From an uncultured Acidobacteriota bacterium (GTDB taxonomy: Bacteria; Acidobacteriota; Blastocatellia; RBC074), in the NCBI GenBank assembly GCA_963796275.1, contig CAWCKY010000003.1:192001-256000 (forward strand): DNA of 64,000 nucleotides, read 5' to 3'. Below are positions 12,049 to 37,333 of the stretch, piece after piece (position 1 is the first letter of the stretch; each line of letters starts with the position of its first letter). A model generated the notes under the pieces. That model did not search any database and was not told the origin of the DNA. It saw only the letters and a program-made list of their open reading frames with translations. The position numbers and the translations under genes are program-made.

Positions 12049-12052
12049 TTAT

Positions 12053-12132: not shown

Positions 12133-12142
12133 ATTATTGCGG

Positions 12143-17989: not shown

Positions 17990-18073
17990 GGGGACGTGGC
18001 GGAATTGGTAGACGCGCAGGTCTCAAAAACCTGTGTCCGAAAGGACGTGTGGGTTCGATTCCCACCATCCCCA
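17990..18073 (+). tRNA. tRNA-Leu(CAA), CCA not encoded
   Basis: GGGGACG acceptor, D arm GGCGGAATTGGTAGACGC, anticodon arm CAGGT-CTCAAAA-ACCTG, long variable arm GTCCGAAAGGAC, T arm GTGGGTTCGATTCCCAC. Confidence 0.96.
18018..18073 (+). repeat. attL (3' 56 nt of tRNA-Leu)
   Basis: AGGTCTCAAAAACCTG...CCCACCATCCCCA identical to 37278-37333. Confidence 0.95.
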
Positions 18074-18144
18074 CTAGCGTCTTGATCGATATCCATAATC
18101 AAATCACTACTTTGGAAACTCAGCCTAATCATATAGTAATGTCC

Positions 18145-18164
18145 GGTACACATTTGGGTACACA
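18145..18164 (+). promoter_or_regulatory. Putative integrase arm-type sites, left
   Basis: GGTACACA-TTTG-GGTACACA; same pair near attR. Confidence 0.7.
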
Positions 18165-18178
18165 CCGAACACATCCTT

Positions 18179-18469
18179 TCAAGATTTTCGAGACTTATTA
18201 GAGAGATTCTCTCCCTTCTTCGAAGACTTCTTGGAGGTCTTAGATTCTGACTCCTTAGCTTTGCCTCTCTTGCCCTGACTCTTCTTCGGGTCCCAATCCT
18301 CGAAATCTTCAACTCTCTCTTTAGGAACGAACCATACAGTGATGTTGCCGAAGGGTTGAGATATTGCACCTTTCACCTTGCCCTGCCTCAGCCAACGAAT
18401 GACGGTGTTGTATGGTCTGTCTATCTTCTCAGCAAATTCCGTTGAAGTCATAAATCTGTCTGTCTCCAT
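18179..18469 (-). CDS. MerR-like/HTH_17 DNA-binding protein (excisionase or regulator)
   Basis: FMTSTEFAEKIDRPYNTVIRWLRQGKVKG..WFVP; next to attL. Confidence 0.75.
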   Translation of the reverse strand: METDRFMTSTEFAEKIDRPYNTVIRWLRQGKVKGAISQPFGNITVWFVPKERVEDFEDWDPKKSQGKRGKAKESESKTSKKSSKKGENLSNKSRKS

Positions 18470-18482
18470 TCTTGGAATTTAT

Positions 18483-18599
18483 AAGTGATCGATCACTTTT
18501 TCAATACTACAGGAGAGCAGATATCCCAGTCAATAAAAAGTGATCTATGATCTAGCAGTTTTTTGTTGACTCAATAAACTGATATGGATACTATCACTT
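18483..18599. promoter_or_regulatory. Divergent promoter pair with palindromic operator
   Basis: Palindrome AAGTGATCGATCACTT (18483-18498), half-sites at 18538 and 18593; TTGACT-17-TACTAT rightward and TTGACT-18-TAGTAT leftward. Confidence 0.65.
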
Positions 18600-18629
18600 A
18601 GATGTCAATCACAGAGGAGACCAAGACCT

Positions 18630-18953
18630 ATGACACTAAACACAATCAAACTCACAGAAGTAGTCACCAAAGCTAAAAGAACAATTCAGAACAACATATC
18701 TCTGTCTAGGATTGAAAAGGCAGTCTGGAACCGGTCTATCACAAAAGCTGAGGAAGTTCTTCTCTCAAATCCCTTCATATATCTCCAGGATGATGGGGAC
18801 GTTCTGATGCTCTCCACCTCTTCCAACCAGCTCTATGTCATCAATGGGAAGTGCATCGATGAGAAGGGCCATTCCTGTAAGGGATATTCAATGACAGGTG
18901 TCTGCTATCACCGGACAGTCAAACGGCTCCTGGAACGGTATCAACAAGCTTAG
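18630..18953 (+). CDS. SWIM-like zinc-finger protein
   Basis: C...C.....CYH pattern (KCIDEKGHSCKGYSMTGVCYHR); GAGGAG RBS; GC hairpin downstream at ~18976-19000. Confidence 0.6.
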   Translation: MTLNTIKLTEVVTKAKRTIQNNISLSRIEKAVWNRSITKAEEVLLSNPFIYLQDDGDVLMLSTSSNQLYVINGKCIDEKGHSCKGYSMTGVCYHRTVKRLLERYQQA

Positions 18954-19230: not shown

Positions 19231-19532
19231 ATTCTCCTGATCAATTCATCACCATCGGAGGGAAACGTTACAGGAAGCCTAGACCTATGATCAGGCCCAG
19301 GGAAGAGCAAGATAGGCTCGATGATATCGGCCTCCAACTTCATGAAGTCCTTCACAAAACAGCCTCTCTCCTGTCTCAGCTCGAAGGATGGGGAAGGGAT
19401 CAGAGATATTCATACAGCATCCCACAGGCCCTTTTTGAACTATTGGGCCGGACAGATGAAGGGGCCTCTGTAGTGGCTTCGAAGGCATTCCTAGAGACCC
19501 TAGGCTATAGAGTGGAGGAGATCAAAAAATGA
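19227..19532 (+). CDS. Hypothetical protein
   Basis: GAGGAG RBS; ATGA coupling on both sides. Confidence 0.65.
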   Translation: MNSPDQFITIGGKRYRKPRPMIRPREEQDRLDDIGLQLHEVLHKTASLLSQLEGWGRDQRYSYSIPQALFELLGRTDEGASVVASKAFLETLGYRVEEIKK

Positions 19533-20332
19533 AGAGACGATTTCTAAGTGAAAGATGGCAGATGGCCTTAGTAGGTCTCGGACTCTGGTTACTCCTGGCC
19601 TTCTGGTCTGTCAGAGCCTTTGTCAGACATATACAGAGTCTGGGTGAATCTGACTCCTTTGATTGGATAGGAGCCACAGCGGGAGAGTTTGCATTATTGG
19701 CCTTCATCCTCTGGCATTGCTTCTCCGTTCATATCAATGTCAGGAGATGGTCTCTCATCTTCGCATTTGTCCTCGGGGCTGTGATTCTCGTTCATTCCGG
19801 GGCATTGAGAGGAATCAGAGAGGCCACCGTGAGACAGGATCAGACGGTGACACAGTTGAAGGATTCATTGACTCAGATGAGCAAAGAACAGATGGAAGCT
19901 GTCAAAGGTGCTAGTGATGAGGAGTTGAACCCTATCTCTCGCAGATCAGCAGACAGAGCAGCAGCTCAGGCAAAGAAAGACATCGCTACTACAGCTCAGG
20001 GGAAAGTTGCAGAGGAGATCAAAGCAGGAACGGAGAAAGTCAAATCATCATCGATCCTTCCAAAGTGGTATCTCGATGGATGGAGTTATTCTGTCATCTT
20101 CGCTCTGGCATCAGCGATGGTGACTGTGATTTTCTTTATGATGATGAACATCGAGGATATAGACAGGAACTTTGACAATATCCCTGACAGACTTCAGACC
20201 ACTACACCTGGCCAATCTACCAGAAGCTTTACCCCTATCTATCATTCACCTATTGAACAAAAGGCTTCCAGACCTGGAGTAGTCAGAGGGAATGGGATTG
20301 ATAAACCTGGAGGCAATCAATCTCACTCCTGA
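19529..20332 (+). CDS. 4-TM membrane protein with central coiled coil
   Basis: Three N-terminal hydrophobic helices, coiled coil, fourth TM, DIDRNFDNIPD acidic loop. Confidence 0.75.
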   Translation: MKRRFLSERWQMALVGLGLWLLLAFWSVRAFVRHIQSLGESDSFDWIGATAGEFALLAFILWHCFSVHINVRRWSLIFAFVLGAVILVHSGALRGIREATVRQDQTVTQLKDSLTQMSKEQMEAVKGASDEELNPISRRSADRAAAQAKKDIATTAQGKVAEEIKAGTEKVKSSSILPKWYLDGWSYSVIFALASAMVTVIFFMMMNIEDIDRNFDNIPDRLQTTTPGQSTRSFTPIYHSPIEQKASRPGVVRGNGIDKPGGNQSHS

Positions 20333-20819
20333 ACCTGTCCTCACAGCGAATCGGGAGAGACAGGATGGGGGTATGGATTCGCAACGGGAGGCAACTACCG
20401 GAAATGAGGTTGCTTTTCCTCCTGTTACTTCCGTAGTAAAACCACCATCTACTTCCGAAGTAAAACCACAGGCAAAGGGGGGATTCACTTCTGAATTTAC
20501 TTCCGAAGTAAAAGAGCCACAAAGGGAGGAATTTACTTCCGAAGTACAACGATCACAACATGTTGACCTATTTGAGCTTAGCTCACTTAAGGAGAATCTA
20601 TTTTGGAGGCCGGTAAAATTCGTCAGAAAGAAGCATTACCCCAAGGTAGTTCCAGACGGATGTGCCTGGAAACAGGATGGAGGGGGATTCACCCTGAGCA
20701 GACAGAGACCAACTAAGTATCTAGGATATTTTCGCAGAGATGTGATCTCAACTTTGGAGAAGAAATATGGCAGGAAAACGAAACGTACAAGAAAAGATAG
20801 ATCTCGAAGGACTACCTAA
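20292..20819 (+). CDS. Hypothetical protein with TSEV repeats
   Basis: 175-aa ORF overlapping both neighbours; repeats encoded by a TACTTCCGAAGTA motif. Confidence 0.55.
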   Translation: MGLINLEAINLTPEPVLTANRERQDGGMDSQREATTGNEVAFPPVTSVVKPPSTSEVKPQAKGGFTSEFTSEVKEPQREEFTSEVQRSQHVDLFELSSLKENLFWRPVKFVRKKHYPKVVPDGCAWKQDGGGFTLSRQRPTKYLGYFRRDVISTLEKKYGRKTKRTRKDRSRRTT

Positions 20820-21060
20820 AGAGACTGTAGCAGCTGTGGTGATAGCTCAGATGTATCAGATACAAGCTATTGCCAACAATCTACCTAACGAAGGTGATAA
20901 GCATCTGCTCTATGTGGAAAGTAACATAGTGCTCGATCTACTCCAGGGATATACAACCCCTGATGCTGTGAAGGCCATCCCTGAGATACAGGCTATTTTA
21001 GAGAAAGGAGAAGAAGGTGTCTCCCTCACCCATAGACGAAAAGAGCCAGATCGAAAATGA
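20767..21060 (+). CDS. Hypothetical protein
   Basis: GGAGA RBS; 97 aa. Confidence 0.6.
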   Translation: MAGKRNVQEKIDLEGLPKETVAAVVIAQMYQIQAIANNLPNEGDKHLLYVESNIVLDLLQGYTTPDAVKAIPEIQAILEKGEEGVSLTHRRKEPDRK

Positions 21061-21333: not shown

Positions 21334-21603
21334 ATGGCCTTAACAAAAGAACAACAAGATGCCTTGCTTTTAGCTTTTCGACAGAGCTGGTCAGGAAGAC
21401 AGTGCCCCATATGCCAGGCAGACAGTTGGGAAGTCTCAGACAGCATATTCGGCCTACCAGAATTTAGTCATGGACTTCTCTCAGGAAGAGGAGGGGCCTT
21501 TTATCCAGTTGTGCCGGTAAACTGCAACAACTGTGGTTATGTTATCTTTTTCAGTGCCATTAAATTAGGACTCTTTGGCGAGCCTCCACAAATAAGAGGA
21601 TAA
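21334..21603 (+). CDS. Zinc-ribbon protein
   Basis: CPIC...CNNCGY; AGGAGAGG RBS. Confidence 0.75.
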   Translation: MALTKEQQDALLLAFRQSWSGRQCPICQADSWEVSDSIFGLPEFSHGLLSGRGGAFYPVVPVNCNNCGYVIFFSAIKLGLFGEPPQIRG

Positions 21604-21606
21604 AGC

Positions 21607-22056
21607 ATGCCACAGACGCCAATTAAATTCACAAACCAAAATTACCTCTTGCCTCCTAAAGAACAACCTGTCTATCCGATTGAAGTAAGAAACCTGGAGC
21701 GTCTGGAGAAGATGATCAAAAGAATTGATCAGCAAGGTGGTTTCTATCAAAACTTGGGGTTTGGCTCAGCAGGTGTAGCGACAGGTGCTTTGACTTCTTT
21801 GATTTCGTTAAATTACGCTCAAGGAGTCTCAGTAACGATCTTGGTAATTAGCTGGGGACTCCTTTTTGCCTCATTCGCTGTAGCAGTCTTCGGATTCATA
21901 GCCAGTACCCGGGAGCGTCAACAACTTCGAGTCTCCAAGGAGGATTTATTGGCTGAGGTGCAATGGATCAAAGAGAGTGTTTACGCCCCTGAAACTGAGA
22001 CGACTGTTGCCTCTACCTCCTCTGACATAGGGCATCGAAAAGGCTCTCAGGATTGA
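21607..22056 (+). CDS. 2-TM membrane protein
   Basis: Two hydrophobic helices; 3 bp after the Zn-ribbon gene; GAGGA RBS. Confidence 0.7.
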   Translation: MPQTPIKFTNQNYLLPPKEQPVYPIEVRNLERLEKMIKRIDQQGGFYQNLGFGSAGVATGALTSLISLNYAQGVSVTILVISWGLLFASFAVAVFGFIASTRERQQLRVSKEDLLAEVQWIKESVYAPETETTVASTSSDIGHRKGSQD

Positions 22057-22476
22057 GTCTCACTGATGCTTGCCCTTCACATCCTTCGTTTTTATTTAAA
22101 CTGGCTATCCTTCCTGCGATATCTTCTGTCTCAACGATTCGAAAAGGGCAGATGGACTGAGCTTCTCATCAGCCTCTCCCTCATGTTCTTCATCGATGAT
22201 CTCAACTAGCCATCGCCACTTGATCAGTTCATCTTCTGTTACTTCTCTATTTTCAGGTTTCATAACTCAATTCTAGCATCTTTGTCATGTCCCCTTCGAG
22301 TTGTCTCAGGGGTAGGGGTGGGGGTATGTGGGAGGGATTTTGTCTCCAGGGGAATTTTTTTGTTTTTCTTCCTTTCGTTGCAGCAAACGTTGAAGGCTGA
22401 TCATGGTGTGGGTAGAATGCACCTGCTTCAGCAGTACTCAGACAGAAGTCAGCCCTTATCGGAGGTGAATTGAAAG

Positions 22477-23190
22477 ATGCTTGAACCGGGGAGTTGGACG
22501 CAATTGATAGCAGCTATCGCAACTCTACTAGCCGTAATAGTCGCTTTGATTAAAGAGCGAATCATATCTTGGTGGTTTCCTCCTAAGCTGACCATGAAGG
22601 CTCGACAGCATCCACCTGATATCGATCATATCCCGTTCAGGTATCCAATGCGTGGCACTCCTCCAGGCTTTCCACCTGTCTATCTGGAGGCAGACTGCTA
22701 CTTCCTACGTCTATGGGTTCAGAATGATGGGAAGTCGAGAGCTGAGAAGGTGCAAGTCTTCGTTTCGGAGATTCTTCGGGAAAGGGCTGGTGAGTTTATC
22801 CCTATGAGTTCATTTATTCCCATGAATCTACGTTGGGGGTTTGGGAGTGAAACTCCAACCCATGCTGAAGTGTTTGCAGATGGGATTTCCCCTGGCATGG
22901 GTGTGCACTGCAATCTCGCACAAATCATCGACTTCAGTAAAAGAAAGGAAGTGGGAGATGACCATCCTGACGCTAAACCAGAAGAGACAGTTATACGTTT
23001 AACAACTGAGATGCACCCAACGAACCGTTGCAATGTTCTCATACCGGGAACTTATAGACTGAAACTCAAGATTGCAGGGTCCAACTGTAGACCCAAAGAC
23101 TATACGGTCCAAATCACACTCTTTGGCAAATGGTTTCAGGAAAGGGAAAAGATGCTTCAAGACGGAGTACTGATGAAAATCATGGACTGA
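22477..23190 (+). CDS. N-terminally anchored hypothetical protein with beta-rich domain
   Basis: GGAGGTG RBS; TM, then RLWVQNDG..RAEKVQV, PGTYRLKLKI. Confidence 0.7.
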   Translation: MLEPGSWTQLIAAIATLLAVIVALIKERIISWWFPPKLTMKARQHPPDIDHIPFRYPMRGTPPGFPPVYLEADCYFLRLWVQNDGKSRAEKVQVFVSEILRERAGEFIPMSSFIPMNLRWGFGSETPTHAEVFADGISPGMGVHCNLAQIIDFSKRKEVGDDHPDAKPEETVIRLTTEMHPTNRCNVLIPGTYRLKLKIAGSNCRPKDYTVQITLFGKWFQEREKMLQDGVLMKIMD

Positions 23191-23235
23191 CCTCAGTTGA
23201 GGGAGAGAGTTTTAGGGAAGAGATAAGCTGAGATA

Positions 23236-23913
23236 ATGAATTATCTTCGAGACATGGATTTTTGGCTAAAAGCTGGCCCCACACTGGCAGCAGTGATTGT
23301 TCCATTCTTAACGTATCTCTGGCTTGCACGAAGTATGTCGAAGGCTATCGAGCGTTACAAGATAGACCTTAGCAAAGAGCTAGAACATTACAAGGCAGAT
23401 ATCAGTAAAGAGCTGGAGATTCATAAGGCTCAGTTACAGGCCAGCTTTCAGACCAGATTCTATGAGTATCAGACTAGATATGGGTGGCTTCATCAGAGGA
23501 CGGCAGAGGCCATTGAGAAGCTATATATGCTGGCAGCAAGGGTTCAGAGTGATTTGCAGACAGGGGTAACTGATAGTCATGAGGTACGTAACCAGACGGA
23601 GGATGAGCATTACAAAGAGGCTGAGGCTCACCTTCAGGATATGATTAACTACTTTGATGAAAAAAGAATCTACTTTGATAAGGAGACCTCTAGTGCAGTT
23701 TTAAGTATAGTGGAGATGACGAATGCTGTTTATGATCGGCATAGGGGTGGTCTTCAGCATTTTAAGGCACCCCCTGAGTTGGAAGAAGCACTAAAACAGA
23801 ATGCTGCCTCATTGATAGATGCTGTGGGTGTTTTGATGGGTTTTCTCGATTACAGATTCAGGAAGCTTCTCGAAGCTGAGATGCCAAACCACCAAGGTAA
23901 AGAGAGGTTTTGA
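23236..23913 (+). CDS. Membrane-anchored helical/coiled-coil hypothetical protein
   Basis: TM, repeated IERYKIDLSKELEHYKADISKEL, RIYF motif. Confidence 0.7.
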   Translation: MNYLRDMDFWLKAGPTLAAVIVPFLTYLWLARSMSKAIERYKIDLSKELEHYKADISKELEIHKAQLQASFQTRFYEYQTRYGWLHQRTAEAIEKLYMLAARVQSDLQTGVTDSHEVRNQTEDEHYKEAEAHLQDMINYFDEKRIYFDKETSSAVLSIVEMTNAVYDRHRGGLQHFKAPPELEEALKQNAASLIDAVGVLMGFLDYRFRKLLEAEMPNHQGKERF

Positions 23914-24346
23914 CATATTCCTTCTTGAGTCGTATACCACTGATTCCAAGGATATCGGGCCTGGAATACGTACGACACTGGTTGAATTTGATTGCAAGCG
24001 ATACCTATATAGCTTGGCATGGTTGCTTCTCTCACTAGAGGTCATAGGAATATGGCTGATGATATATGTTGGAGCGGGCCGATATGGGGCAGCCTTGATC
24101 TTCGCATTGGTTTGGACCTTGCCTAATGCGTTTTACCTCTCTAGGGAGGAAAGAAATTGGTTGAGGAGGTCAACGTAGAGGGAGAGGGCTCACCCAGTGA
24201 TACTGTTCGGTAAAAATCAGAATCCGAATCTGATAGAGAACAAGATAAGGAAATGGCTTAATTACCTACCAGAGACGTAGAAACAAAACTGCTATGTCCC
24301 AGAATACTAATTATGTATCTTCACTTATGAATGAAAGATTGAGTCT

Positions 24347-25256
24347 ATGAAAGAATTTGCAGATTTACTCCAAGCAGTTGCTTCAGTCTTTTGGCCCATC
24401 CTTGTGTTCATCATAGTCATATGGTTCAAAAAAGAGATTAAAGAAATTCTGAAGCGTATTAAGCGGGGAAAGATATTAGGTCAAGAACTTGAGCTTGAAG
24501 AAGACTTGAACAAGTTGAATAGGACTGCTGTTGCCTCGGCATCTGAAGTTGCTTCATTACCTCCGTTAACTGACCCAGACAAAGTGCAAGATAGTAATCT
24601 TAATCGTAATATCAGGAGAGCTGCTTCGTTAAGCGAAGTTCTTAACGTTTTAGATTTAGCAGAATCATCCCCTAAAGCCGCTTTAGTGACTTTGGCAATT
24701 GAGATTGAGAAGGAGTTGCGGGAGATAATATTTAGTCAAGGGCAAGTAGGTAACCCATACAATTTTACAATGAGGAATGCAATTGACATTCTTAGAAAAA
24801 GAGGTCCATTACCTGACTCTACTATTCTGGCACTGGATAGCTTCATTAGAATACGTAATAAAATTGTTCATGCCGGGTGAGGTACCCTGTGATGAGATTT
24901 TAAGAACGATTGATTCAGGAGCTTTAATTCTTTTGACTTTGAAGTCTATACCTCGCCTAAAAGTATATGTTTATCACCCTAACGTGACAGTTTATTCAGA
25001 TAAAGAATGCACAAAGCCTATAGATGATGCTCGTGGTATTATTCTTGAGATGACCGATTCTAAGGGTGAAGACAAGCATATTGGTATATATCCGAGCACC
25101 AAAAAACATTTTGTAAAAGGCAAACAGGTAGCTTGGGAATGGGATAATAAAAACAGATGGGGATTGTCATGGTATCGTGATCCCGATACTAACGAAATAA
25201 AATTAGCGTGGGGTGAATCATTCGAATTTGTAGGTCGAAATGTTGAGGATACGTAG
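24347..25256 (+). CDS. TM-HEPN (RxxxxH) protein with Trp-rich C-terminal domain, one frameshift near 24875
   Basis: TM, E..LRE, RNKIVH; removing one G of GCCGGGTGA joins ORFs 24347-24880 and 24777-25256. Confidence 0.65.
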
Positions 25257-25276
25257 TCTATCAATTGGACATCGGT

Positions 25277-25768
25277 TCATCTGAAAACCTTGCTCCAGTT
25301 TATAGCTCTCCAAGGCAGGTCTTCCTCTATTTTATTTAAAAGTTCGTATAAGACCTCCTTCTGTTTCATACCAAATTGGCTATCAATGTAATCTGCTATC
25401 CCAAAGAATAGATTCTTATTTCTCACACCACAGAGATCAGCTATGTGCCGGAGGCTGTACTCGACATCAAGGCCGGTGACTGGCCCTTGAAGTGATTGCT
25501 CCCTGAGTTTTAGAAAATTTAGACGCCACCTGACTTGTTCGGCAGCACCATGCTTCATTCTGTTGAAAGTCTTTTCATTCAGCATATCCATTACACCTCT
25601 CGGGAACCCTTTAAGAGTTCCCGGATCGTGAATATCCCATTGATCAATCTGCTTCAGCTTTTGGACAAGCTGATAACAACGAATGCAGAGTCCTTTTGCC
25701 CTGTGACGGTATCGTTCCGTCCCACACTCCTGGCATTTTTCATATTTGCTTGACCATCTTTTTTCCAT
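25277..25768 (-). CDS. Hypothetical protein with N-terminal Cys/His zinc finger
   Basis: CQECG...H.AKGLCIRCY; ATG25768 with GAGGAG RBS. Confidence 0.7.
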   Translation of the reverse strand: MEKRWSSKYEKCQECGTERYRHRAKGLCIRCYQLVQKLKQIDQWDIHDPGTLKGFPRGVMDMLNEKTFNRMKHGAAEQVRWRLNFLKLREQSLQGPVTGLDVEYSLRHIADLCGVRNKNLFFGIADYIDSQFGMKQKEVLYELLNKIEEDLPWRAINWSKVFR

Positions 25769-25779
25769 GGTGGCTCCTC

Positions 25780-26252
25780 TGTAGACGATCACTGAGAAGT
25801 GAAGGAATTTGAACAGAAGGATTCTCGACGAACGTCTCACTCGTAGATCAGCCGGAACGCTCCAAGAACGATCATGACCACTCCACCGATGATCATAATC
25901 AATCGGGATCGGAGTGTCAGTGGATATCTCAGTGTCGATCCAGGCATCGCTCCAGTGCCATGGGTCGCAAATATTCCCATTACTATGAAGAATACGCCGA
26001 AACCAATCAACGCCCAGTGTTCTTTCATGGCAACCCCTCCAACTGAAGGTTAAGTACAGTCCTCCACCAAAGGCTAAATTACAAGATAACGCTAACCCTT
26101 GTTGGGTATTATCGCAGCTTCCCTCCTGTAGGGTCATTGAAAGAGGCGTGACCGGCTTGATGATCGAAATTGGGAAAAAGGGAACGCCGGGTTCTGTTCA
26201 AATTTATTCACTTCGCTGTTCAAATTCTTTCACTTTCTGACGATCGCCGACA
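25780..26252. mobile_element. 473-bp non-autonomous mini-transposon carrying one gene
   Basis: TGT...ACA ends, 37-bp imperfect TIR, 20-bp AAGTGAANRAATTTGAACAG repeats (1 left, 2 right), TCCTC duplicated at 25775-25779 and 26253-26257. Confidence 0.85.
25837..26028 (-). CDS. 63-aa 2-TM membrane protein (mini-transposon cargo)
   Basis: GGAGGGG RBS; two hydrophobic helices. Confidence 0.65.
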   Translation of the reverse strand: MKEHWALIGFGVFFIVMGIFATHGTGAMPGSTLRYPLTLRSRLIMIIGGVVMIVLGAFRLIYE

Positions 26253-26365
26253 TCCTCCGACCTACATCAGTTGTGTTCTTATATTAAGTAGTCGAGTTGA
26301 ATATTGATCATTGATTATGTCGAGAGTAGAATCCCCACGTAACACCATAGGGAGGTTTAATTCAG

Positions 26366-27461: not shown

Positions 27462-27583
27462 GATTCATCTCCCTTTTCGAGCTTATTTGGTACGGGGAAT
27501 GTATCCATTCAATTCTACCCTTCAACTGGAGGGTCTATATGCCTTCCCTCCTCATCTCTTGTGTGTGCGTGGAGACCTCTCCA

Positions 27584-28300: not shown

Positions 28301-28303
28301 ACC

Positions 28304-28564: not shown

Positions 28565-28745
28565 ACCCCTACCCCTTGTGTAACGTAAAATTTAAAGTGA
28601 GGGATATATCCATCTCCCCACTTCTGGAAGAGCTATGCGACTAAACCATTTCTAATTCAGTTCATCTCCTCATCTGATCGCCCGAGCTTCTCCGTTAATG
28701 ATCGTGAGTCCCCATAGAGACAAATTTGCCTTCAATATCTCCAGC

Positions 28746-30364
28746 TCAATCGGGGAGATTCTCGCCTGTCCTCTCATAGGTCCTTTTGGCAGTCAGTAGG
28801 GAAGGAGAATTTATCCCCATCCTTTGTGTCATCTCGATGATGCTTAAGGCTGTGTGTGTGGCCTGATCGAGATCATTTTGAGATTCCTCTTCCTCCTCCA
28901 GCTCCTGGGTAGATTCCAGGTTTGCCCTTTCTATTTCAGCTATGCCCTCAATGTATGAAGAGGGCATAGCTGACTTTTTTTCCTTATAAATATATTTATT
29001 ATCTATAGTTTCTGAGCTTTGCCCATTGTCCATAGAAGGGCAAAGCGGATGGCAAAGCTGAACCACAGAATTATTAGAATCTCCCCCCTCCAGGTTTGAC
29101 CTTTCCAGTTTCAGGTTTGACCTTTTGTCTATTAAGGGCAAAGCTGGGAAGGTATGAGAAATAATAAGGTTAGGCTCTATTTTGTCTGAGCTTTGACCTT
29201 TGCCCCAAGGAAAGGCAAAGCTGGATTCATCAGGGCAAAGCTGAGATTCCCTCCCTGAATTATTAGAATCAGAGGAGACAATTTCTGTCTCCTCCATCTT
29301 CTCAGCCTTATCTCCCCGGCCCTTCTCAGGCAGGCTCCAATAGGTCCTAATGTCTTTGCCCTGGCCTTCCCATCTGATTAGCACACCTAGCTTGCCTCTT
29401 GCAGTCGTTAGTTGCTTCTCACTGATGCCCTCCCTTTTTGCAACTTCCTTGATATCAGATGAAGGCACTTCCCTCTTCTCCAACATTACTAGCAAAAGGG
29501 TAGTTGCATCAGCCTTCTCCGATCCCTCATCCTCATTCGGAATCTGATAAGCAAGGGCTTTCTCAAGACTGAACTGAGGGGGGACATCAGTCCATTTCAA
29601 TACCCCAACTCCATCATCGGTATCTTGAATCACATACCCAATGGGCCTAAGCTCATTACATATATTGCCCCCATTGTAGTGTAGGGCTCTCTCCTCCTGG
29701 TTATCGGGGTTAGTAACTGCAATGAATGCAGAACGTACTGCTGCTATGAAGTCGATAGATCCCTGGCCTCTGTACATAGCCTTCGAGCTATTACCCTTGT
29801 TGAGATGTCGAACAACTACAACAGCACAGTTGTATTTTGCTGCCAGTATTTGGAGTCTTTGCATCGGCTGTCTGACCTTGTTTGCCTGATTCATATCGAG
29901 ACTTCCCCCGACATACAAAGAAATTGGATCAAAGATGACCAGATCAGGTTTGACTTCAGAGATAGCTTTTTCGATGGAGAGGATGTTGACCTCATCCAGG
30001 GTTACATAGGTATCGATGATTCCTATGTTGTCCATATTGCCTTTAGATGCCTGAGCCGAGGTTTGATAACCTTTGAGCTATTGTTCTCCAATGAGAAGAT
30101 CAAAACCTTCCCCGGCCCTCTTTCAGTCCATCCAGGCAAAAGGTCATACCTGCCATTCGATACTGCCGAAGCCCAAGAGAAGGTGATCCAACTTTTTCCT
30201 GCCTTTGGGTCTCCGTCAATAATTGTTACTTCCCCAATAGGTACTCCGGGCATAAGCCAATCAAATTTTTCCTCCTCGATATCCTTCATCCATTTGATTG
30301 AGAGAGGTTTTGCATCGGTCTTTGTCTGAAATTTTGGGGTAGGTTTGGGAATTTTATTTGGCAT
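28746..30364 (-). CDS. AAA_25/RepA-like RecA-fold helicase, frameshifted near 30030
   Basis: Walker A GDPKAGKS (ORF 30023-30364); Walker B LVIFDP and HLNK..YRGQGS....AAVRS (ORF 28746-30035). Confidence 0.85.
28921..29270. repeat. Iteron-like cluster (GGGCAAAGCTG-type) around an AT-rich tract; putative origin
   Basis: About a dozen full or partial copies in both orientations; 14-bp inverted repeat 28936-28973; AT-rich 28975-29011. Confidence 0.7.
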
Positions 30365-30705
30365 AACTCACCCCCTCCTTGATTTCAAACTCCCCCAGAT
30401 TTGGATGGCTCTGATCATCAATATCCATAGGGGTGGAGAGATCATCACTGGCTGTGCTATAATCCCCCCAGTTTAGATTTTCATTTATTGTTGGCAGCTT
30501 CGGAATCATCATCTCGGGGCTGCCTTTTCGTTTGTCCATACAATTTCTCCTTCTCGAAATTATTTTTAAATGGATGGCCCCATCAGCCAACCTTTTTAAG
30601 CTACTGCAAAATTCGATCAAAAGTCTCGATTGCTCTCTTCCCTTGTGCCAGAGCCTTCTCGATTTCATTCCTCAATTGTCTGTCGCTCATATGATCCCTC
30701 CTTTT

Positions 30706-30885
30706 TCAGGCTGCCCTCTTCTCACACCTCGACAGGAAGTCTTGAAGGTGCCTCTCGCTATACTTGACCTTGCCACAGACCTTGAAAAATCCTATGGCTC
30801 CTTTCTTTCTCAAACGATAGAGGGTGATTCGGTTTTTGAATCCCAAAATCACAGTTGCCTCTCGCTCTGTAAAAGTTTTCTCCAC
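30706..30885 (-). CDS. 59-aa AlpA/excisionase-like HTH protein (not in ORF track)
   Basis: GAGGAGG RBS and GTG; MEKTFTEREATVILGFKNRITLYRLRKKGAIGFFKVCGKVKYSERHLQDFLSRCEKRAA. Confidence 0.8.
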   Translation of the reverse strand: MEKTFTEREATVILGFKNRITLYRLRKKGAIGFFKVCGKVKYSERHLQDFLSRCEKRAA

Positions 30886-31287: not shown

Positions 31288-32049
31288 TTATCTAGACTCT
31301 TTTCTTCGACTCATGAATTGAATGAGGTCCCGGACAGCTTGGTCTGCTAATGCGTCTGTCGCAACCTCAGCAGCTCGAATGCGTTTGACTTCAACACCCT
31401 CCACTGTGAGAGGAACGAGTCGCTTGTCAGCTTCGGCAGGCAGTTCTTTGTGAAAAGTATCGCCATCAACTTCGACAACGAAGGTCAAGCCCTTATATAC
31501 AATAATGAAGTCTGGCTCTAAGCGATTGTATCTATTGCCGATCCGTACAAACACAGGAAGTGGTGCGACAGCAAGTTGAGCACGGGTCATAGCCTCAAAC
31601 AATGTTATCTCTGCCTTCGACCGAAAGAGTAGCCCACGGTGCTGCTGAGAAGCAATGTTGTCGCTTCTAACTCTTCCCTGGTTGGTGACACCTTCACCTT
31701 TGACAAAGCGTATCGCTTCTTCTCTCCAAGTTTCAGTTGCTGAACTCACCTTTGGGGAAATCACAACTAACTTGAGGTCATCGTTAGAGGTAGACACGAA
31801 GAAGGGCCTTGCTACATCCTTTATTGAATCCTCAGTCGAACTACGTTCCTCTTCGGAGAGAGCGTAGAAGATGTGGACGGGCAATGAGATGTATAGAGTC
31901 CAATAGGCAACATCAAAATCATTTTCGTAGAATGAGAACCAGCAATCTCCTTCAACAACTGCCGTAATCGCCCTAGCATCTCCCCTCATCTTCAGCCCTT
32001 CAGTGAGGGATGCAAGAAAATCTTCGATTGGGAATGGCCCCTCATTCAT
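31288..32049 (-). CDS. Vsr/DUF559-like PD-(D/E)XK nuclease with uncharacterised N-terminal domain
   Basis: FRSKAE...EPDF......VVEVDG..FH. Confidence 0.7.
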   Translation of the reverse strand: MNEGPFPIEDFLASLTEGLKMRGDARAITAVVEGDCWFSFYENDFDVAYWTLYISLPVHIFYALSEEERSSTEDSIKDVARPFFVSTSNDDLKLVVISPKVSSATETWREEAIRFVKGEGVTNQGRVRSDNIASQQHRGLLFRSKAEITLFEAMTRAQLAVAPLPVFVRIGNRYNRLEPDFIIVYKGLTFVVEVDGDTFHKELPAEADKRLVPLTVEGVEVKRIRAAEVATDALADQAVRDLIQFMSRRKESR

Positions 32050-32203
32050 AATCATATCCTCTCGATTAACATGCTGAATCCGGCTCTTAGGGAGGCTCAA
32101 CTACGTGAATAATCCCTCTTCGATCTGAAACCCTCGAACCTGGATTCCAGATTTAGAAGACCTATATCTTATCCAGTTAGGCTATAGGGCCTTCGTTATA
32201 ATA

Positions 32204-32986
32204 TTAAAAACACTTGTTGATCTTACAGAAGTCTTTTGTATCGTTGATCACTTGTTTAGAGAATTTAGTTATTACCTTTCTGTTATTCTCATATATAGTG
32301 AATCTAGGATAACAAACTCTATAAATCATCCCACCTTCTTTAGTTGCTACTTTTTCAAAATTATAGTTTTCCCCACCTGATGAAGAGCCTGAATATATAG
32401 TCGGTCTTATACAATATGGAAAGTAAGTGCACTTCTGTTTATCTCCCTCTCCTTCACACCTTTGATCTACTATAGGGATATTCACCCAGTTATCTCCATC
32501 AGTAAGGGACATTGTAAATATCAATTTAATGGGCTTATCTAGTGATGGGTCCGTAGTTGGAGTAACAGATGGAGTTGATGTCGGAATGGGAGATGATGAT
32601 GTTGTTGTTGGGGGTTCAGAGGATTTAGGAGATATTGCTACTATGAAGACTACAAAGCCAAAAATAAGCAAAGAAACAATAAGCAAACCTCTAAATCCAT
32701 AATCTTTAGTACTCTCACTCTTAGATGAAGCTTTAGGAGAAGGCTGTGGTGACGATTGAGGTGGCTGTGGAGGTGGAGGTGGAGGTGGAGGTGGAGTTCT
32801 ATTTCCCCTCTCTGCCTGATCTCCCATTGCCACCTCATATGCCTCATTCAGGAGTTTCATCATCAGCTCTGATCCACCTGAATCTGGATGACACCTCTTT
32901 GCTAAATCTTTATATCGACCTTTGATTTGTTCCTTGCTGGCTGAAACGGGAAGTCCCAAATATTCAAACGCTTCAGATATCTTCAT
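32204..32986 (-). CDS. J-domain (DnaJ-like) membrane protein
   Basis: YLGL...IKGRYKDLAKRCHPD..G...LLNEAYE; poly-Pro linker, TM, Cys-containing C-terminal domain. Confidence 0.85.
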   Translation of the reverse strand: MKISEAFEYLGLPVSASKEQIKGRYKDLAKRCHPDSGGSELMMKLLNEAYEVAMGDQAERGNRTPPPPPPPPPQPPQSSPQPSPKASSKSESTKDYGFRGLLIVSLLIFGFVVFIVAISPKSSEPPTTTSSSPIPTSTPSVTPTTDPSLDKPIKLIFTMSLTDGDNWVNIPIVDQRCEGEGDKQKCTYFPYCIRPTIYSGSSSGGENYNFEKVATKEGGMIYRVCYPRFTIYENNRKVITKFSKQVINDTKDFCKINKCF

Positions 32987-33513
32987 AAGTCCACCTATCT
33001 CTTCCTATCCACCCATCCATGACTTCTAGACAGCCAAAAGTGTCTCTTTCAGTTTCGTATAGAAAGTGTATCTAAGGCTCATGGGGGAGAATGTCCTTCT
33101 TGATCAGATTTAACCATTTGAGGGACCCGTTCTGAGGAGGTCCTGGGCCAGATTCTACGAGATCCCTGACTAATGGCCAAGAGTTTTTGGATCAGTAGGA
33201 GGGACCCAATCCCCATCTTCAATCTCCCCAACAGGCGAGGACTGACGACAAGCATCAGAGAGAGGAAATCTCTCACAAATCATTGCATCACCCCTGGACT
33301 CGCTCTATACTCTGCCACGTTCGGCTATTCGCAGTCATAAATCATCCTTTATCACACAGGAGAGAGCACAAAATGTAGGCTCGGTAGAAATTTGCCATAG
33401 ACCTAAAAGGAACAACCAATCGCTCGTACAGAACCACACAAGTTTGATCTATATGTCTCAGCGAAGTAGAACTTCATCAAAGCTGTCTAAGTCGCTATGC
33501 AGTTCTAGGGAGG

Positions 33514-33813
33514 GTGCAAGGTCGTATGCCGAAAAACGAGGATGCAGACGTAGAGCTGGCAAAGAAAATTGCACAGGTTGCACAAATTAGACGCAAAGCG
33601 AAGTTGGATTCTATCAAGGATTACATAGGCTTCGTTGTTAGCCAATTGTTCGGCTTGATTTCCCTGATAGCTGGGATAATTGGGGCATTTGTTCCATCTA
33701 TACTACCTTTTAAGATCAGTAATCCGACAACATATATTGGGATAGGATTAGGGGTATTAGTAGGAAAAAGTATAGTCACAACCATTGCTAAAGTGGCAAA
33801 CGTCTTAAAATAA
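33514..33813 (+). CDS. Small 2-TM membrane protein
   Basis: Two hydrophobic helices; TAATG coupling to the next gene. Confidence 0.65.
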   Translation: MQGRMPKNEDADVELAKKIAQVAQIRRKAKLDSIKDYIGFVVSQLFGLISLIAGIIGAFVPSILPFKISNPTTYIGIGLGVLVGKSIVTTIAKVANVLK

Positions 33814-34868
33814 TGATCAACATTACTTTTTCGTTATTAGCCTTGAGCATAGTGGGAGTAGTCATCCTCCTTATCTGCAAGGGATTAGGCCGTCCGATAA
33901 ACAGTGGTTATCTGCTTGCCCGTGGATTCTTTCTTATTTTTGGGATGGGTATTTTACTGTTAGGTATATGCTTTCATTTGAAGTCATGGCCGTATGCCAC
34001 ATTTTTCAGTGCCCTTTTCGGTGTGCTTGGTGCTCAAATCGGTCTCTGGTCTATAGGTATAAGTGGAGAAATACTTGGCAATCGGCCTCAAACAGACGAG
34101 TTCGGAGAATTCAGCCTCGGTCTGAATACGATTGGTCTGTCTAACTCTGCTCTGCAGTTTGCCAATATTGTTCTTGTTACCATTATGTCTGTGAGCCTCT
34201 TGTATTTTTACTCTCCTTGGTTAGCAGAGTTTGTATTTAACAAGAAACTCGACTCAATCGGCTTTATACAACAAGTCCATGCTGAGACTAAGCTCCCAGA
34301 AAAACCTACATGGGTGACAGAAACAGTAAAATCCACCGACAGGTTCGGCAAGGAGATAGAGGTTGAGATAGGGATCCTTTGGGACCCTTATAGATGGGTT
34401 AAAGGAAGTACAGAGGATGTATCAATCGATGATGCTGAAAAAGTTAAATTCTCCATTGGAGATGTCATCAGAAATTTTCAGAACAGTGAGAACAGACCTA
34501 TCATTGCTGTGGGGACTGCATCTCACGAAAATGCTGTGGAGAATCCTGAACAAGAGACTAATCGTGCCCAAGCGAGGGCAGATAGGTTAGTCACATTATG
34601 TGGAGAACATTTTATAAATCTCCCTCACATTTATAGTTTAAATCTTGGGGCATTCAAGACAGACCGAAGTTATTCGGTCTTTTCAGCCTCAGAACGTAGA
34701 GTTATTTTACTGGTCATAAAGAAAGGTGAAGATAGCTTAGATTTAACATCTGGGGTAAAAAACGCTCTGATTAAAGCTAAAGTGGAGCAGGGTTTTATTT
34801 TCGATGCAAGAGACTATTCCTTGTTTGATACTACCAGGTTTCAAGTGGTGCAAAGGCTTAATTTTTAG
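33813..34868 (+). CDS. Multi-TM protein with divergent OmpA/MotB-like C-terminal domain
   Basis: About 4 TMs, then AVGTASHE...NRAQARADRL...ERRVIL. Confidence 0.6.
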   Translation: MINITFSLLALSIVGVVILLICKGLGRPINSGYLLARGFFLIFGMGILLLGICFHLKSWPYATFFSALFGVLGAQIGLWSIGISGEILGNRPQTDEFGEFSLGLNTIGLSNSALQFANIVLVTIMSVSLLYFYSPWLAEFVFNKKLDSIGFIQQVHAETKLPEKPTWVTETVKSTDRFGKEIEVEIGILWDPYRWVKGSTEDVSIDDAEKVKFSIGDVIRNFQNSENRPIIAVGTASHENAVENPEQETNRAQARADRLVTLCGEHFINLPHIYSLNLGAFKTDRSYSVFSASERRVILLVIKKGEDSLDLTSGVKNALIKAKVEQGFIFDARDYSLFDTTRFQVVQRLNF

Positions 34869-34935
34869 AAGATGTAGCCTCACATCTCAAAGACCTCATA
34901 TAGAATACACCGATGTGGCAGAGGACTAACCGTTT

Positions 34936-35694
34936 ATGAGTGAAGGAGAATTCATTGCAAGAATAGATAGATCCCCTCGTGGCTGGTATGGGAATGTAAT
35001 TTTCGAAATACGCTTATTGTATGGGTACGTTGAAAGTGTTGAACATCAGATTGATGAATCGATAAACAGGCTCCATCGAGCGAAACAGACCGAGATAATT
35101 GAGTATGAGGACGGTTCGGCATCTATAATCACTTCATATCACGGGATTGATGATTTTACCTATCATCTTGATACGATATTCAAGGAATACTTCCCCAATC
35201 TTCAACGTAGGAGTGCCTTGATAACACTCTTCTCCTTCTTTGAACATCAGCTTGATGATCTATGTATAAGGTTCTCCAATATAGGCAAGGTTGCCGTCAA
35301 ATTTGATGTTTTCCAATGTAAAGATACAGGAATTGACCGTTCGACTAAGTATATAAAGGAGGTGGTAGGTCTCACCTTAGATCATGGCAGAGGCCCCTGG
35401 AATGAGATCAAAAATATTCAAAGCATTCGAAATATCCTTGTACACAACGATGGCAAGCTAAAAGATGAGGATAAGGATAAGGATAAAGTCACGAAGAAAG
35501 ATAAAGTCAATGAAGCCACGAAGAAATATGCCTGCAAACATGGCCTTCTATCACTTCTACCGGGAGAATGTGAGGGTACATATGAAATCGGAGAGGAGAT
35601 AAAAATCAATGAAGCCTATTTGCCTCATGTTATCAGTACGTTTGCTCACTATTTCAAAGAGATCGACCAGCTCATTTCCCATCCCAATAAATAA
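34936..35694 (+). CDS. HEPN-superfamily protein (putative RNase)
   Basis: RRSALITLFSFFEHQL...IRNILVHNDG. Confidence 0.75.
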   Translation: MSEGEFIARIDRSPRGWYGNVIFEIRLLYGYVESVEHQIDESINRLHRAKQTEIIEYEDGSASIITSYHGIDDFTYHLDTIFKEYFPNLQRRSALITLFSFFEHQLDDLCIRFSNIGKVAVKFDVFQCKDTGIDRSTKYIKEVVGLTLDHGRGPWNEIKNIQSIRNILVHNDGKLKDEDKDKDKVTKKDKVNEATKKYACKHGLLSLLPGECEGTYEIGEEIKINEAYLPHVISTFAHYFKEIDQLISHPNK

Positions 35695-36008
35695 AAAGAG
35701 GGAGTGATATCCAATCTCTACTCCCCCCTAAAGTGACCGATGATGAGATTGATTTATCTTCTCCCTCTCTTCCTCTTTGCTCTCCTACTCTTATGTGAGA
35801 CTTTTACGATCTGCTCCTTTGTGGTCTCTCCGTCCTCCTTCTGAATCTCCTGGCCCAGAAAATATCCCTCTCGATCCCCTCTCTGAGAGATCATGAAAAG
35901 TTGATGATGATGATTTTCGAACATTCATGTGATGATCAAAGATTTTCCTGTTCATCCTTTCCTCCTTATTCGTTAGTTGATAAAATTTGATTCTGGGTCT
36001 GACTCTTG

Positions 36009-37136
36009 TTAGATCGATTCTCCCCTCTGGCCTCTCCCCTCTTCCTGTCTATTCAAAAGGCTCCTGGCCTTGTCTATCGTCAGATGAGTAGTGTTGATAT
36101 AGATTCTGAAAAGTGTGTTGATATCTGCATGACCACTGATCTTGGCTATCTCCTCCAGTGGCATCCCCTGAGCGAGCAGACGGGTACAGAAGGAATGTCT
36201 AAGGTCATGAAACTGGAGATCCCCCAATCCTGCCTCATCAACTGTAGATCCCCAACTTTTTTGAATGGTAGTGATATTGAAGACGGACTCTCTATCTGGA
36301 TATTTTTGTCTCAGCCCTTCCAGCTCTATCATCAACCTCTCACTGATGGGAATCGTCCTTGCCTCATTGGTCTTTGTCATTATGGCCCTGAGATTGATTT
36401 GACGGCCATCCATATCCACATCCCTCCACTGAAGCGAGAGCAACTCACCCAATCTCATCCCCGTGTCGATAGCAGCTATGATAATTGGTCTGATGTGTAC
36501 TCGCTTCCCATTAAGAGAGGCAGTTAAAAGTTTTGTCTCCTCCTCATCAGTGATGACTCTCTTCCGTCTGGTCTCTGCTGACTTGAGAATTATGGGGCTG
36601 GTAGCATTCTCAAAAGGACTCTTCTCTATCCACCCTCTACTGACGGCAAATCTCATCATCGCCTGAAGGACTTCAAGCTCACGGTTCACAGCACTGATGC
36701 TCCTCTCCCTATCGTATTGGGTCTTTGTCCTGAGCCTGATCGATTTGAAAGTCTCGATATCACCTATGGTGACCTCCTTCAGCCTCATCGAGCCGAAGTA
36801 ATCCACTAGGGCATCTATCCTGATCTTGACTGTCCTTGCCGATCTGAGACCAGATATCTTCTTATCGTTACGATATTCAGGCCCCTTGACTTTATCCTCG
36901 ATATATTTTTCAGAGAGTTTCTTGAAGGTGACTTTATCTGTATCGATTTTCTCTATCTGCTTGGGGTTCTCAAACTTCTTTCCCATAGCCTTCAATAGCT
37001 CTCTGGCTTCGGGCTTAGTCGGGGCAGACTCCTTGTGACTTCTCCTTTTGCCTGTCCGATCAGTGAAGGTGATTCTCGCTATCCACTTTCCATTTCTCTT
37101 GTCTCTGTACAAATATCCCTTGCCTCTGTTTGCCAT
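36009..37136 (-). CDS. int: Tyrosine recombinase/integrase with N-terminal arm-binding-like region
   Basis: TGMRLGE, TKT, FHDLRH, SGH, RIY catalytic residues; GGAGG RBS before ATG37136. Confidence 0.96.
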   Translation of the reverse strand: MANRGKGYLYRDKRNGKWIARITFTDRTGKRRSHKESAPTKPEARELLKAMGKKFENPKQIEKIDTDKVTFKKLSEKYIEDKVKGPEYRNDKKISGLRSARTVKIRIDALVDYFGSMRLKEVTIGDIETFKSIRLRTKTQYDRERSISAVNRELEVLQAMMRFAVSRGWIEKSPFENATSPIILKSAETRRKRVITDEEETKLLTASLNGKRVHIRPIIIAAIDTGMRLGELLSLQWRDVDMDGRQINLRAIMTKTNEARTIPISERLMIELEGLRQKYPDRESVFNITTIQKSWGSTVDEAGLGDLQFHDLRHSFCTRLLAQGMPLEEIAKISGHADINTLFRIYINTTHLTIDKARSLLNRQEEGRGQRGESI

Positions 37137-37154
37137 ATTCAAGTCCTCCATCTG

Positions 37155-37174
37155 GGTACACACTTGGGTACACC
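37155..37174 (+). promoter_or_regulatory. Putative integrase arm-type sites, right
   Basis: GGTACACA-CTTG-GGTACACC, 12-bp period as at the left end. Confidence 0.7.
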
Positions 37175-37277
37175 CAAATTGAATTGATTGATTGAAATGA
37201 CAGACTGAGATTTAAATTAGAGATTTGATTGAATGGCTGAGAGAGCCTTCTAGAGGGGCTTTTTAGAGAGATGTTTA

Positions 37278-37333
37278 AGGTCTCAAAAACCTGTGTCCGA
37301 AAGGACGTGTGGGTTCGATTCCCACCATCCCCA
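37278..37333 (+). repeat. attR (duplicated 3' part of tRNA-Leu)
   Basis: Identical to 18018-18073. Confidence 0.95.

Follow-up and report, generated by a model that had tools for sequence, protein, structure and literature searches.

How islands that encode neither a relaxase nor a terminase persist and move has been described as an open question (10.64898/2026.01.13.699239). The question is posed in concrete form by a 19.3-kb island at a tRNA-Leu gene of an uncultured Acidobacteriota bacterium of the class Blastocatellia (assembly GCA_963796275.1), which lies within 64,000 nucleotides of contig CAWCKY010000003.1 (forward strand, positions 192,001 to 256,000), a stretch that we call the window and to which all coordinates refer unless a related locus is named. 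An earlier note, made from the sequence alone, had taken the island for a satellite-like element of a possibly undescribed family, with an int, alpA, helicase and ori backbone, defence-like cargo and a left operon in place of packaging-hijack genes. The analysis reported here identifies the island as a genuine mobile DNA element that is integrated site-specifically, and it supports the existence of a family of undescribed integrative elements that combine variable cargo with a backbone of integrase, regulator, helicase and replication origin resembling that of phage-inducible chromosomal islands (PICIs). The integrase, helix-turn-helix (HTH) regulator and helicase are of an already known kind; what is new is a membrane protein with four transmembrane (TM) segments, the 4-TM protein, and its neighbour. 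The reading that we favour, and to which we give roughly an even chance, is that the island behaves in the manner of a PICI or of a tycheposon with cargo and bears, in addition, a self-addressed membrane tether.

An integrative element at a tRNA-Leu gene

The integration target is an intact tRNA-Leu(CAA) gene on the plus strand (17990..18074), recognized by ARAGORN and Rfam, the tRNA being the sole Rfam match. The 3' part of this gene, from the 5' strand of the anticodon stem onward, forms a 56-bp attachment (att) core (18018..18073, plus strand) that recurs as a perfect, 100% identical direct repeat at the other end of the island (37278..37333, plus strand); the GC content is 0.440 in the island as compared with 0.518 and 0.510 in its flanks. 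At the tRNA-distal end, a tyrosine integrase is encoded on the minus strand (36009..37163) by a single intact open reading frame (ORF; PF00589, E = 1.8e-29; phrog_1, E = 2.3e-66) with the catalytic motifs TGMR, HDLRH and GH. The earlier note had described both the repeats starting at the anticodon stem and the intact integrase, and both descriptions stand. Within the window, exact copies of the 10-mer TGGGTACACA are confined to 18155 and 37153, each with an adjoining partial copy, and the resulting pairs on the plus strand (18145..18164 and 37153..37174) occupy the two ends of the island in the layout expected for arm-type integrase sites, which we take to be their probable function; the number of copies with one mismatch is by itself within chance (reached in 22 of 100 shuffles). 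The right-hand pair (37153-37174) reaches into the DNA immediately 5' of the integrase start, or into the start itself, which suggests integrase autorepression.

The 30 main ORFs were compared with Pfam, PHROGs and NCBIfam, and 91 further ORFs and sub-ORFs with PHROGs and Pfam. Neither set yielded a match to a capsid, portal, terminase, relaxase or type IV secretion system protein, and the earlier statement that virion and conjugation genes are lacking is borne out by this profile search for hidden structural genes or genes of integrative and conjugative elements (ICEs). Among the window ORFs there was likewise no match to an FtsK/TraB translocase, to a small terminase subunit (TerS) or capsid-morphogenesis gene (in PHROGs, Pfam and NCBIfam, as distinct from the profiles of SatelliteFinder), to the psu-delta-sid operon or alpha primase-helicase of P4-like satellites, or to tail or holin genes, for which the closest result was a weak Rz-like spanin match of the 4-TM protein (PHROGs, E = 0.092). 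By the profiles searched, the island is neither a P4-like satellite nor a capsid-forming PICI (cf-PICI), a prophage, an ICE or an integrative and mobilizable element.

A family of related elements

A scan of GTDB genomes with the 4-TM protein as query gave 36 candidate stretches and three confirmed loci (n = 3, all retrieved through this query), designated L001, L002 and L003 and labelled Blastocatellales, Heliobacteriaceae and Blastocatellia, respectively. All three are att-bounded elements of 10-12.5 kb (10.9 kb, 12.5 kb and 10.0 kb, in the same order) with arm-like repeats at both ends; L002 is integrated at tRNA-Phe within a 65-bp repeat of 97% identity, and the att cores of L001 and L003 are 11 bp long. 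Each contains an integrase, a divergent HTH gene, a helicase and a 4-TM gene that is overlapped by the gene next to it, and two of the three have an alpA-like HTH_17 gene at the head of the replication arm. Since all three related loci are att-bounded elements with an integrase, a divergent HTH gene and a helicase, we conclude that an element family exists. The suspicion that the family is undescribed, and that the same backbone would be found elsewhere with variable cargo, has thereby gained support, given that the three loci share the backbone and none of them carries a counterpart of the window cargo. The literature on satellites, islands and prophages of Acidobacteria yielded no description of the family within a coverage that mostly excluded subscription papers, and the supplements of surveys could hold relatives.

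The family is probably associated with Blastocatellia; the Heliobacteriaceae label of L002 could reflect either mis-binning or a wider host range. The helicase differs in type between the relatives, being of the DnaB-N+AAA_25 or DUF3987 kind or D5 plus AAA_25, and in L002 the D5 primase-helicase and the AAA_25 protein are both present, on opposite strands. The left arm of L001 holds an operon with SWIM, GIY-YIG and IrrE-like genes. In L003, a TerS-like gene (phrog_7344, E = 1.9e-9) lies alongside the left operon and, because the two occur together, the left operon is not the substitute for packaging genes that had been proposed; its conserved core is a membrane protein together with a probable DNA-binding domain.

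A four-transmembrane protein and its partner

The 4-TM protein (19529..20332, plus strand), which serves as the family marker, shows four hydropathy peaks and was modelled by AF2 with a mean confidence (pLDDT) of 83.8. Model and hydropathy together indicate a helical hairpin of ~90 amino acids between TM3 and TM4 and a positively charged N-terminus and TM2-3 loop, and the protein would be oriented with the hairpin in the periplasm and the C-terminus in the cytoplasm. After TM4 (window 20150-20190), 135 of 159 family sequences contain a DxDxDG-like motif that possibly binds calcium. Homologues are numerous (69 matches apart from the query, at 41-59% identity; 94 clusters at 50% identity), one of which, P0163, carries an N-terminal Peptidase_M50B-like fusion. 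The 4-TM protein matches no Pfam family, and 74 distant homologues share none. Fold searches with the model returned generic helical matches alone (none at E<=0.001 in Foldseek against PDB and BFVD; best Z of 9.6 in VIA), a blank result that does not establish a new fold, and comparisons with 50,697 phage records and with 72,556 plasmids were likewise without a match. In the Atlas, the closest cluster has 145 members (score 0.95); of those with a taxon label, 69% are marked as viruses, and the phylum is known for only 26.

Downstream, and overlapping the 4-TM gene by 41 nt in the +1 frame, lies the partner gene (20292..20819, plus strand), which encodes a linker of low complexity and, after it, a basic domain modelled with three β-strands and a helix. 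It has 12 homologues besides itself, and its model is of lower confidence (pLDDT 71.8). The last 85 amino acids include 24 lysine or arginine residues as against 8 aspartate or glutamate residues, and from sequence and model the domain is probably the DNA-binding partner of the 4-TM protein. The partner of L001, for which the phage collection held no match, resembles the tails of the 4-TM homologues P0216 (1.2e-23) and P0209 (9.8e-20), and the partner of L003 that of P0200 (2.4e-6). Because these partners match the C-terminal tails of 4-TM homologues, the two proteins exist as natural fusions. A second type of fused tail, found in seven other 4-TM homologues, was considered as kin of the window domain and set aside: the two are unrelated by HHalign, and the test of that tail by hidden Markov model was circular.

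A frameshift signature at the junction

Two of the three relatives carry, at the DNA level, the complete set of signals of a -1 frameshift, that is, a slippery heptamer, a 3' structure and an open -1 frame. The heptamer stands in frame just before the stop codon of the 4-TM gene, as G GGA AAA in L001 and as G GGA AAC in L003, where GGAGG is found 7 nt upstream of it; shifty sites on record include X_XXY_YYZ heptamers, G_GGA_AAC/AAG and C_CCA_AAG (PMC5009743). The partner ORF in the -1 frame is open over 135 amino acids in L001 and 183 in L003, and in the latter the first methionine of this frame does not appear until residue 157. Hairpins begin 5-8 nt 3' of the heptamer, with -45.4 kcal/mol (z -6.7) in L001 and -36.1 kcal/mol (z -3.7) in L003, values attained in 0/200 shuffles each.

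The same signature can be sought in protein ends, as X_XXA_AAZ encodes the residues [GP][KN]. For this purpose 124 of 158 distinct homologues were kept, each having a DxDxDG-like anchor, a tail of at least 12 amino acids and no known fusion. The [GP][KN] pair occurs within the last four residues of 74 of these 124 non-fused homologues, compared with 4.7% of other tail windows, and within the last nine residues of 104. Among controls, such an ending was found in 2 of 65 unrelated AAA_25 proteins and, for the reversed order of residues, in 9 of the 124. Of 65 representatives chosen for low redundancy, 33 have the ending, and in a quick tree it turns up on either side of the deepest split. These observations suggest that, in much of the family, a programmed -1 frameshift adds the basic β-sheet domain to the 4-TM protein. 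If so, the family offers a new context for bacterial -1 frameshifting, a process that gene callers overlook; no account of a frameshift-linked pair of a membrane and a DNA-binding protein was found in the literature covered, which mostly excluded subscription papers.

In the window, an RNA hairpin spans the overlap of the two genes (20288..20331, plus strand; -29.7 kcal/mol for 20286-20365, z -3.09, 1 of 200 shuffles) and sequesters the partner ATG at 20292. The burial of this start codon suggests translational coupling, and a +1 shift at the stop could serve the same junction instead. We also considered whether an assembly indel masks a -1 site at the window junction, and set the idea aside: P0002, the closest homologue, and L002 both end in 'SH' as the window protein does, and L002 has a +1 overlap.

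Palindromes within the partner gene

Inside the partner gene of the window are four TACTTC-C-GAAGTA palindromes (20425..20546), three of them perfect, which are candidate binding sites. The 'repeat protein' that the earlier note had placed in the left operon dissolves into these elements, its repeats being DNA palindromes. Partner genes of the relatives have palindromes of their own, CCCTTAAGGG in L003 and an inverted pair of AGAAGGTT in L001, and the partner-gene sets are the only palindromes repeated at least three times in a whole element (three times in the window, four times in L003). When codons were shuffled synonymously, the observed palindrome count was reached in 3 of 300 shuffles for the window, 2 of 300 for L001 and 13 of 300 for L003. 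Among sequences known as proteins, P0136 and P0143 each contain two different peptide words that a single 12-bp palindrome could encode in two reading frames. There is a described case of such an arrangement, as SpdA2 binds palindromes within its own gene and affects plasmid stability (PMC4170104).

Regulators and the replication module

Two HTH_17 genes, with PHROG excisionase/regulator matches, lie on the minus strand. One, an excisionase-like regulator near the tRNA (18179..18469; Pfam E = 0.0011; PHROG excisionase/regulator, E = 7.3e-7), has a homologue adjoining int in L001 (E = 1.2e-7); the other, an alpA-like gene (30706..30885; Pfam E = 2.4e-5), heads the replication operon and occupies the same position in L001 and L003. 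Both HTH_17 matches fall below the cut-off that Pfam itself applies, and PF05930, AlpA proper, was matched in L003 only (E = 0.0011). Upstream of the first gene is a divergent promoter region (18470..18629) in which a 16-bp palindrome, at 18483, is accompanied by additional AAGTGAT half sites, in keeping with the second HTH gene and divergent switch that had been read at the tRNA end; promoter matches come from consensus scoring alone (39 found, 31 expected), and promoter and terminator counts are close to chance. Once a circle is excised, the tRNA-proximal regulator would read through attP into int, whereas the relatives have the order HTH-int-attP.

The small left-operon genes that precede the 4-TM gene, all on the plus strand, begin with a Cys/His protein (18630..18953) that is SWIM-like by eye alone. 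This identity, assumed in the earlier note, remains unconfirmed, as neither Pfam at E<=0.1 nor PHROGs gave a match and BLAST to the SWIM-like gene of L001, which occupies the same position and itself matches SWIM weakly (E = 0.0039), was not significant (E = 0.14). Two small ORFs follow (18898-19230 and 19083/19227-19532), without a meaningful family in Pfam, PHROGs or NCBIfam, and a small helical ORF ends the operon (20767..21060, plus strand); in P0233 its homologue comes immediately after the β-domain.

The replication operon reads, on the minus strand, from the alpA-like gene through one or more small ORFs (30354..30668; no family in Pfam, PHROGs or NCBIfam) to an AAA_25 (RepA-type) helicase or Rep protein with a C-terminal winged-HTH-like region (28685..30364). 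Both genes of the alpA-like to AAA_25 operon that the earlier note described are thus present, but the helicase is not one ORF: by comparison with intact homologues of 533-546 amino acids, the frame switches at ~30038 and ~28755. Neither the window protein nor these homologues contain a primase domain. Because a host receptor gene outside the island (49627-53314) shows at least six frame changes relative to its intact paralogue (59937-63699), an indel-rich long-read assembly is the likelier cause, and the helicase breaks probably stem from assembly indels. Host genes named by eye as TonB-receptor-like and PQQ-repeat-like (46338-53362 and 55819-57314) are broken into many frames.

The predicted origin is represented by an iteron-like cluster, but its position is within the helicase gene, where 13 CAGCTTTGCCC-like repeats (11-mers; 28917..29243) are distributed over both strands (six and seven) and fall in all three reading frames. 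An 8-mer reaches a cluster of six in this array, the null being at most three (30 resamples). Intact helicase homologues have the xxLP word four times in the same linker, and in L001 an iteron cluster lies at the end of the helicase gene (seven copies; null at most four).

Comparison with known systems

The resemblance to PICIs lies in the integrase, the alpA-like HTH gene, the replicative helicase with ori, the accessory genes between int and regulator, the absence of tail and holin genes, the TerS-like gene of L003 and the size of the relatives (10-12.5 kb, against a PICI median of 9.5 kb; PMC10085698). The island differs in that the window has no TerS, capsid-morphogenesis or primase match, that the iterons are inside the helicase gene, and that a second, convergent arm carries the 4-TM and frameshift module, for which the five core components described for PICIs offer no counterpart (PMC10085698). 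At most three of the five components ('Type C') can be counted in the window, its replicase module consisting of the frame-broken AAA_25 gene with iterons and without a primase domain; elements of this class may be defective PICIs or other elements (PMC10085698). Because TerS and capsid-morphogenesis matches are lacking and at most three of five components are present, we do not file the island as a PICI.

Cargo-carrying tycheposons share with the family a tRNA-targeted tyrosine integrase, an excisionase-like HTH protein, cargo, TerS in some members and exchangeable helicase or primase modules, here AAA_25, DnaB-N+AAA_25, DUF3987 and D5 across four elements (10.1101/2020.12.28.424599). The combination by which tycheposons are recognized, a tRNA-targeted tyrosine integrase with replication genes and cargo, is found in the window; the likeness is one of gene content, as tycheposons were defined in marine picocyanobacteria and no 4-TM tether module is mentioned in the accessible part of that description (10.1101/2020.12.28.424599).

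For the two-gene module itself, the closest parallel is the Streptomyces pair of SpdA2/sps and SpdB/SpdB2, in which a small DNA-binding protein has 12-bp palindromes in its own gene and the element also encodes a 4-TM protein (PMC4170104, PMC4447253). In-gene palindromes of this kind occur in the window, L001 and L003 and are missing from L002. The island differs from the Streptomyces systems in lacking TraB, in being an integrative element of a diderm host and in the linkage of its two proteins, which in the family takes the form of a probable frameshift, a fusion or an overlap. A relationship to pIJ101 SpdB (HHalign probability 0.3%) or to SpdA2 (E 0.31-0.59) was examined at the sequence level and rejected. 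The recoding signal resembles those of lambda gpG/gpGT and dnaX, with X_XXY_YYZ near the end of the first ORF, a 3' stem-loop and a short product made in a set ratio to a longer fusion (PMC5009743); in the island family, the first ORF encodes an integral membrane protein and the second a probable DNA-binding domain, unlike the tail chaperone and polymerase subunit of those systems. The phi29 protein p16.7, a membrane organiser of DNA replication, is also comparable, as an early membrane protein proposed to organise the DNA of its element at the membrane (PMC11476376, PMC4446434), but it belongs to a lytic phage, and the island 4-TM protein and β-domain have no fold or sequence match to any PDB chain.

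A proposed membrane tether and its alternatives

In the reading that we favour, the integrase would recombine at the anticodon arm of tRNA-Leu through the arm sites observed at both ends, with excision and early genes under the control of the HTH gene, its divergent-promoter switch and the alpA-like gene. Excision would yield a circle in which HTH gene, attP, int, alpA and helicase are co-oriented, and the AAA_25 Rep-helicase could bind the iterons observed in its own gene and replicate the circle with a host or helper primase. The 4-TM protein would be made mostly in its short form, a minority of molecules carrying, or pairing with, the basic β-sheet domain, through a -1 frameshift in much of the family, an in-frame fusion in some members and a +1 overlap with a separate start in the window and L002. 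By binding the palindromes in its own coding sequence, this domain may hold the excised circle at the inner membrane for replication or segregation. Transfer would most likely take place in phage particles, some relatives having a TerS of their own, and the TerS-less window copy might be transferred passively, by pac mimicry, transduction or vesicles. More tentatively, we propose that, whether by -1 frameshift, by fusion or through a coupled overlap, minority subunits of a 4-TM oligomer acquire a C-terminal DNA-binding domain, of which there would be two or more interchangeable kinds, each recognising element-specific palindromes in its own linker sequence, such that each element tethers, and possibly exports, its own circle alone, without ParA, relaxase or FtsK motor. 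A module of two genes that brings together a recoding signal, binding sites inside the gene and a membrane protein of a new family would be a small, directly testable candidate for motor-free partition or transfer.

A number of observations weigh against this reading or parts of it. The analysis revealed no helper phage, no circular form and no virion, and the window copy may be degenerate, because it has no TerS and a broken helicase. The presence of the 4-TM gene in L001-L003, unlike that of their other shared genes, is by construction, since these loci were found with the 4-TM query, and L002 has no recognised alpA. The window copy lacks a slippery heptamer, and the hairpin on its 3' side does not stand out (z -1.2), the partner in both the window and L002 being in the +1 frame with its own ATG; the protein-end test draws on protein sequences that are related and hence not independent. 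As to the palindromes, L002 has no excess (all 300 shuffles reach the observed count), the 4-TM gene of L001, used as a control, has an excess of its own (5 against 1.2, all of different sequence), and only 7 of 17 protein-only linkers could accommodate the same palindrome at two or more sites, in a test where same-frame repeats would beat the shuffles anyway. For the β-domain, searches for a related fold or family came back empty (best Z 4.3; none in PDB sequences, Pfam or Atlas), which again does not establish a new fold, and for this reason the case for DNA binding is built on charge, topology and palindromes. The relationship of the window domain to the fused domains is weak in HHalign (probabilities of 13%, E = 0.002, and 39%, E = 3e-4, the 13% score being above all 100 column shuffles), and phmmer finds no match between them.

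The same module might instead be a minimal device for DNA transfer or spreading in the manner of SpdB2/SpdA, an oligomeric pore loaded through the palindromes that moves the element to neighbours or into vesicles without a phage. Four TM segments with a long helical hairpin would suit such a pore, SpdB2 being a pore-forming, DNA-binding 4-TM spread protein (PMC4447253); so would a minority long form, which fits a ring with few DNA-gripping subunits (compare the lambda G/GT ratios, PMC5009743), and the window copy has no packaging gene. With no FtsK/TraB translocase, relaxase or ATPase besides the helicase, no homology to pIJ101 SpdB or SpdA2, and a TerS in one relative (L003), we regard this as quite doubtful. 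Alternatively, the pair could be of phage origin, an early module in which a membrane effector and a regulator bring about superinfection exclusion, abortive infection or interference with a helper, the palindromes serving as autoregulatory operators. Its operon is of an early type behind a divergent HTH switch, accompanied in L001 by SWIM, GIY-YIG and IrrE-like genes, and the mostly virus-labelled Atlas cluster (69% of taxon-labelled members) and the weak spanin match (E = 0.092) point the same way. Operators usually stand upstream of a gene, and the palindromes here are unlike them in lying mid-gene, within linkers; moreover, PADLOC has no match for the window 4-TM protein, two of its relatives or three fusions, nor do the phage and plasmid collections hold one, so that an exclusion module seems unlikely.

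Decay offers another explanation of the window copy, namely that it is the remnant of a satellite or prophage in which the helicase is a true pseudogene, the packaging genes have been lost and the island by now does no more than gather cargo. Such a history would account for the two breaks in the helicase and a third in a HEPN-like cargo gene, for the absence of the TerS that L003 possesses, and for a length of 19.3 kb as opposed to 10-12.5 kb in the relatives. Perfect att repeats, an intact integrase and retained arm sites speak against it, the host receptor gene with its at least six frame changes points to an indel-rich assembly, and we consider decay improbable.

Cargo and further observations

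The cargo of the window forms two blocks. The first (21334..28564) comprises a Zn-ribbon ORF, TM ORFs, a split HEPN-like gene (24347-24880 and 24777-25256, the break at 24870 judged by eye), a weak HNH-like ORF and an SNase plus Ada-Zn nuclease (27584-28300), in which a signal-peptide-like SNase nuclease is fused to an Ada-Zn or 'sunset' domain; a copy of the left-operon palindrome with one mismatch is found within this gene, at 27631. The second (31288..35694) holds a PD-(D/E)XK-like ORF, a DnaJ-TM ORF, two TM ORFs and a HEPN-like ORF (34936-35694). The defence-like character ascribed to this cargo remains putative: HEPN-type matches exist but are weak (RTasHEPN, 1.5e-4; HepT, 2.4e-4), and PADLOC detects no complete system among the 30 window ORFs, which give single weak matches, and no match among 15 proteins of the relatives. 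When five cargo proteins were searched against the plasmids, three had no relative and two had 'hypothetical' relatives alone, and a PDB sequence search with two cargo proteins returned nothing useful. The ORF at 31288-32100, whose PD-(D/E)XK-like motif was recognized by eye, is a candidate defence nuclease; plasmids of Burkholderia and Kineococcus encode full-length relatives that are annotated as hypothetical. At 33514-34868, a TM ORF of 99 amino acids is followed by a multi-TM ORF whose C-terminus resembles OmpA/MotB by eye, an arrangement like that of Zorya, with no match in Pfam, PADLOC, PDB or plasmids.

Further features were seen in the relatives and the host DNA. Within the left operon of L001, between the IrrE-like gene and the 4-TM gene, lies a second integrase (8744-9904 of that locus), 33% identical to the window integrase, and downstream of the L001 helicase (11535-13037) are an Hjc-like resolvase, a helical protein of 247 amino acids and a protein of 99 amino acids with a GAGRK motif, which is TerS-like by eye and has no named match. 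Small left-operon genes of L003 have two 31-nt repeats (9362-9638, 94% identical) placed after their stop codons, and in the window three imperfect 33-nt repeats (16914-17051) occupy the host intergenic DNA to the left of the island.

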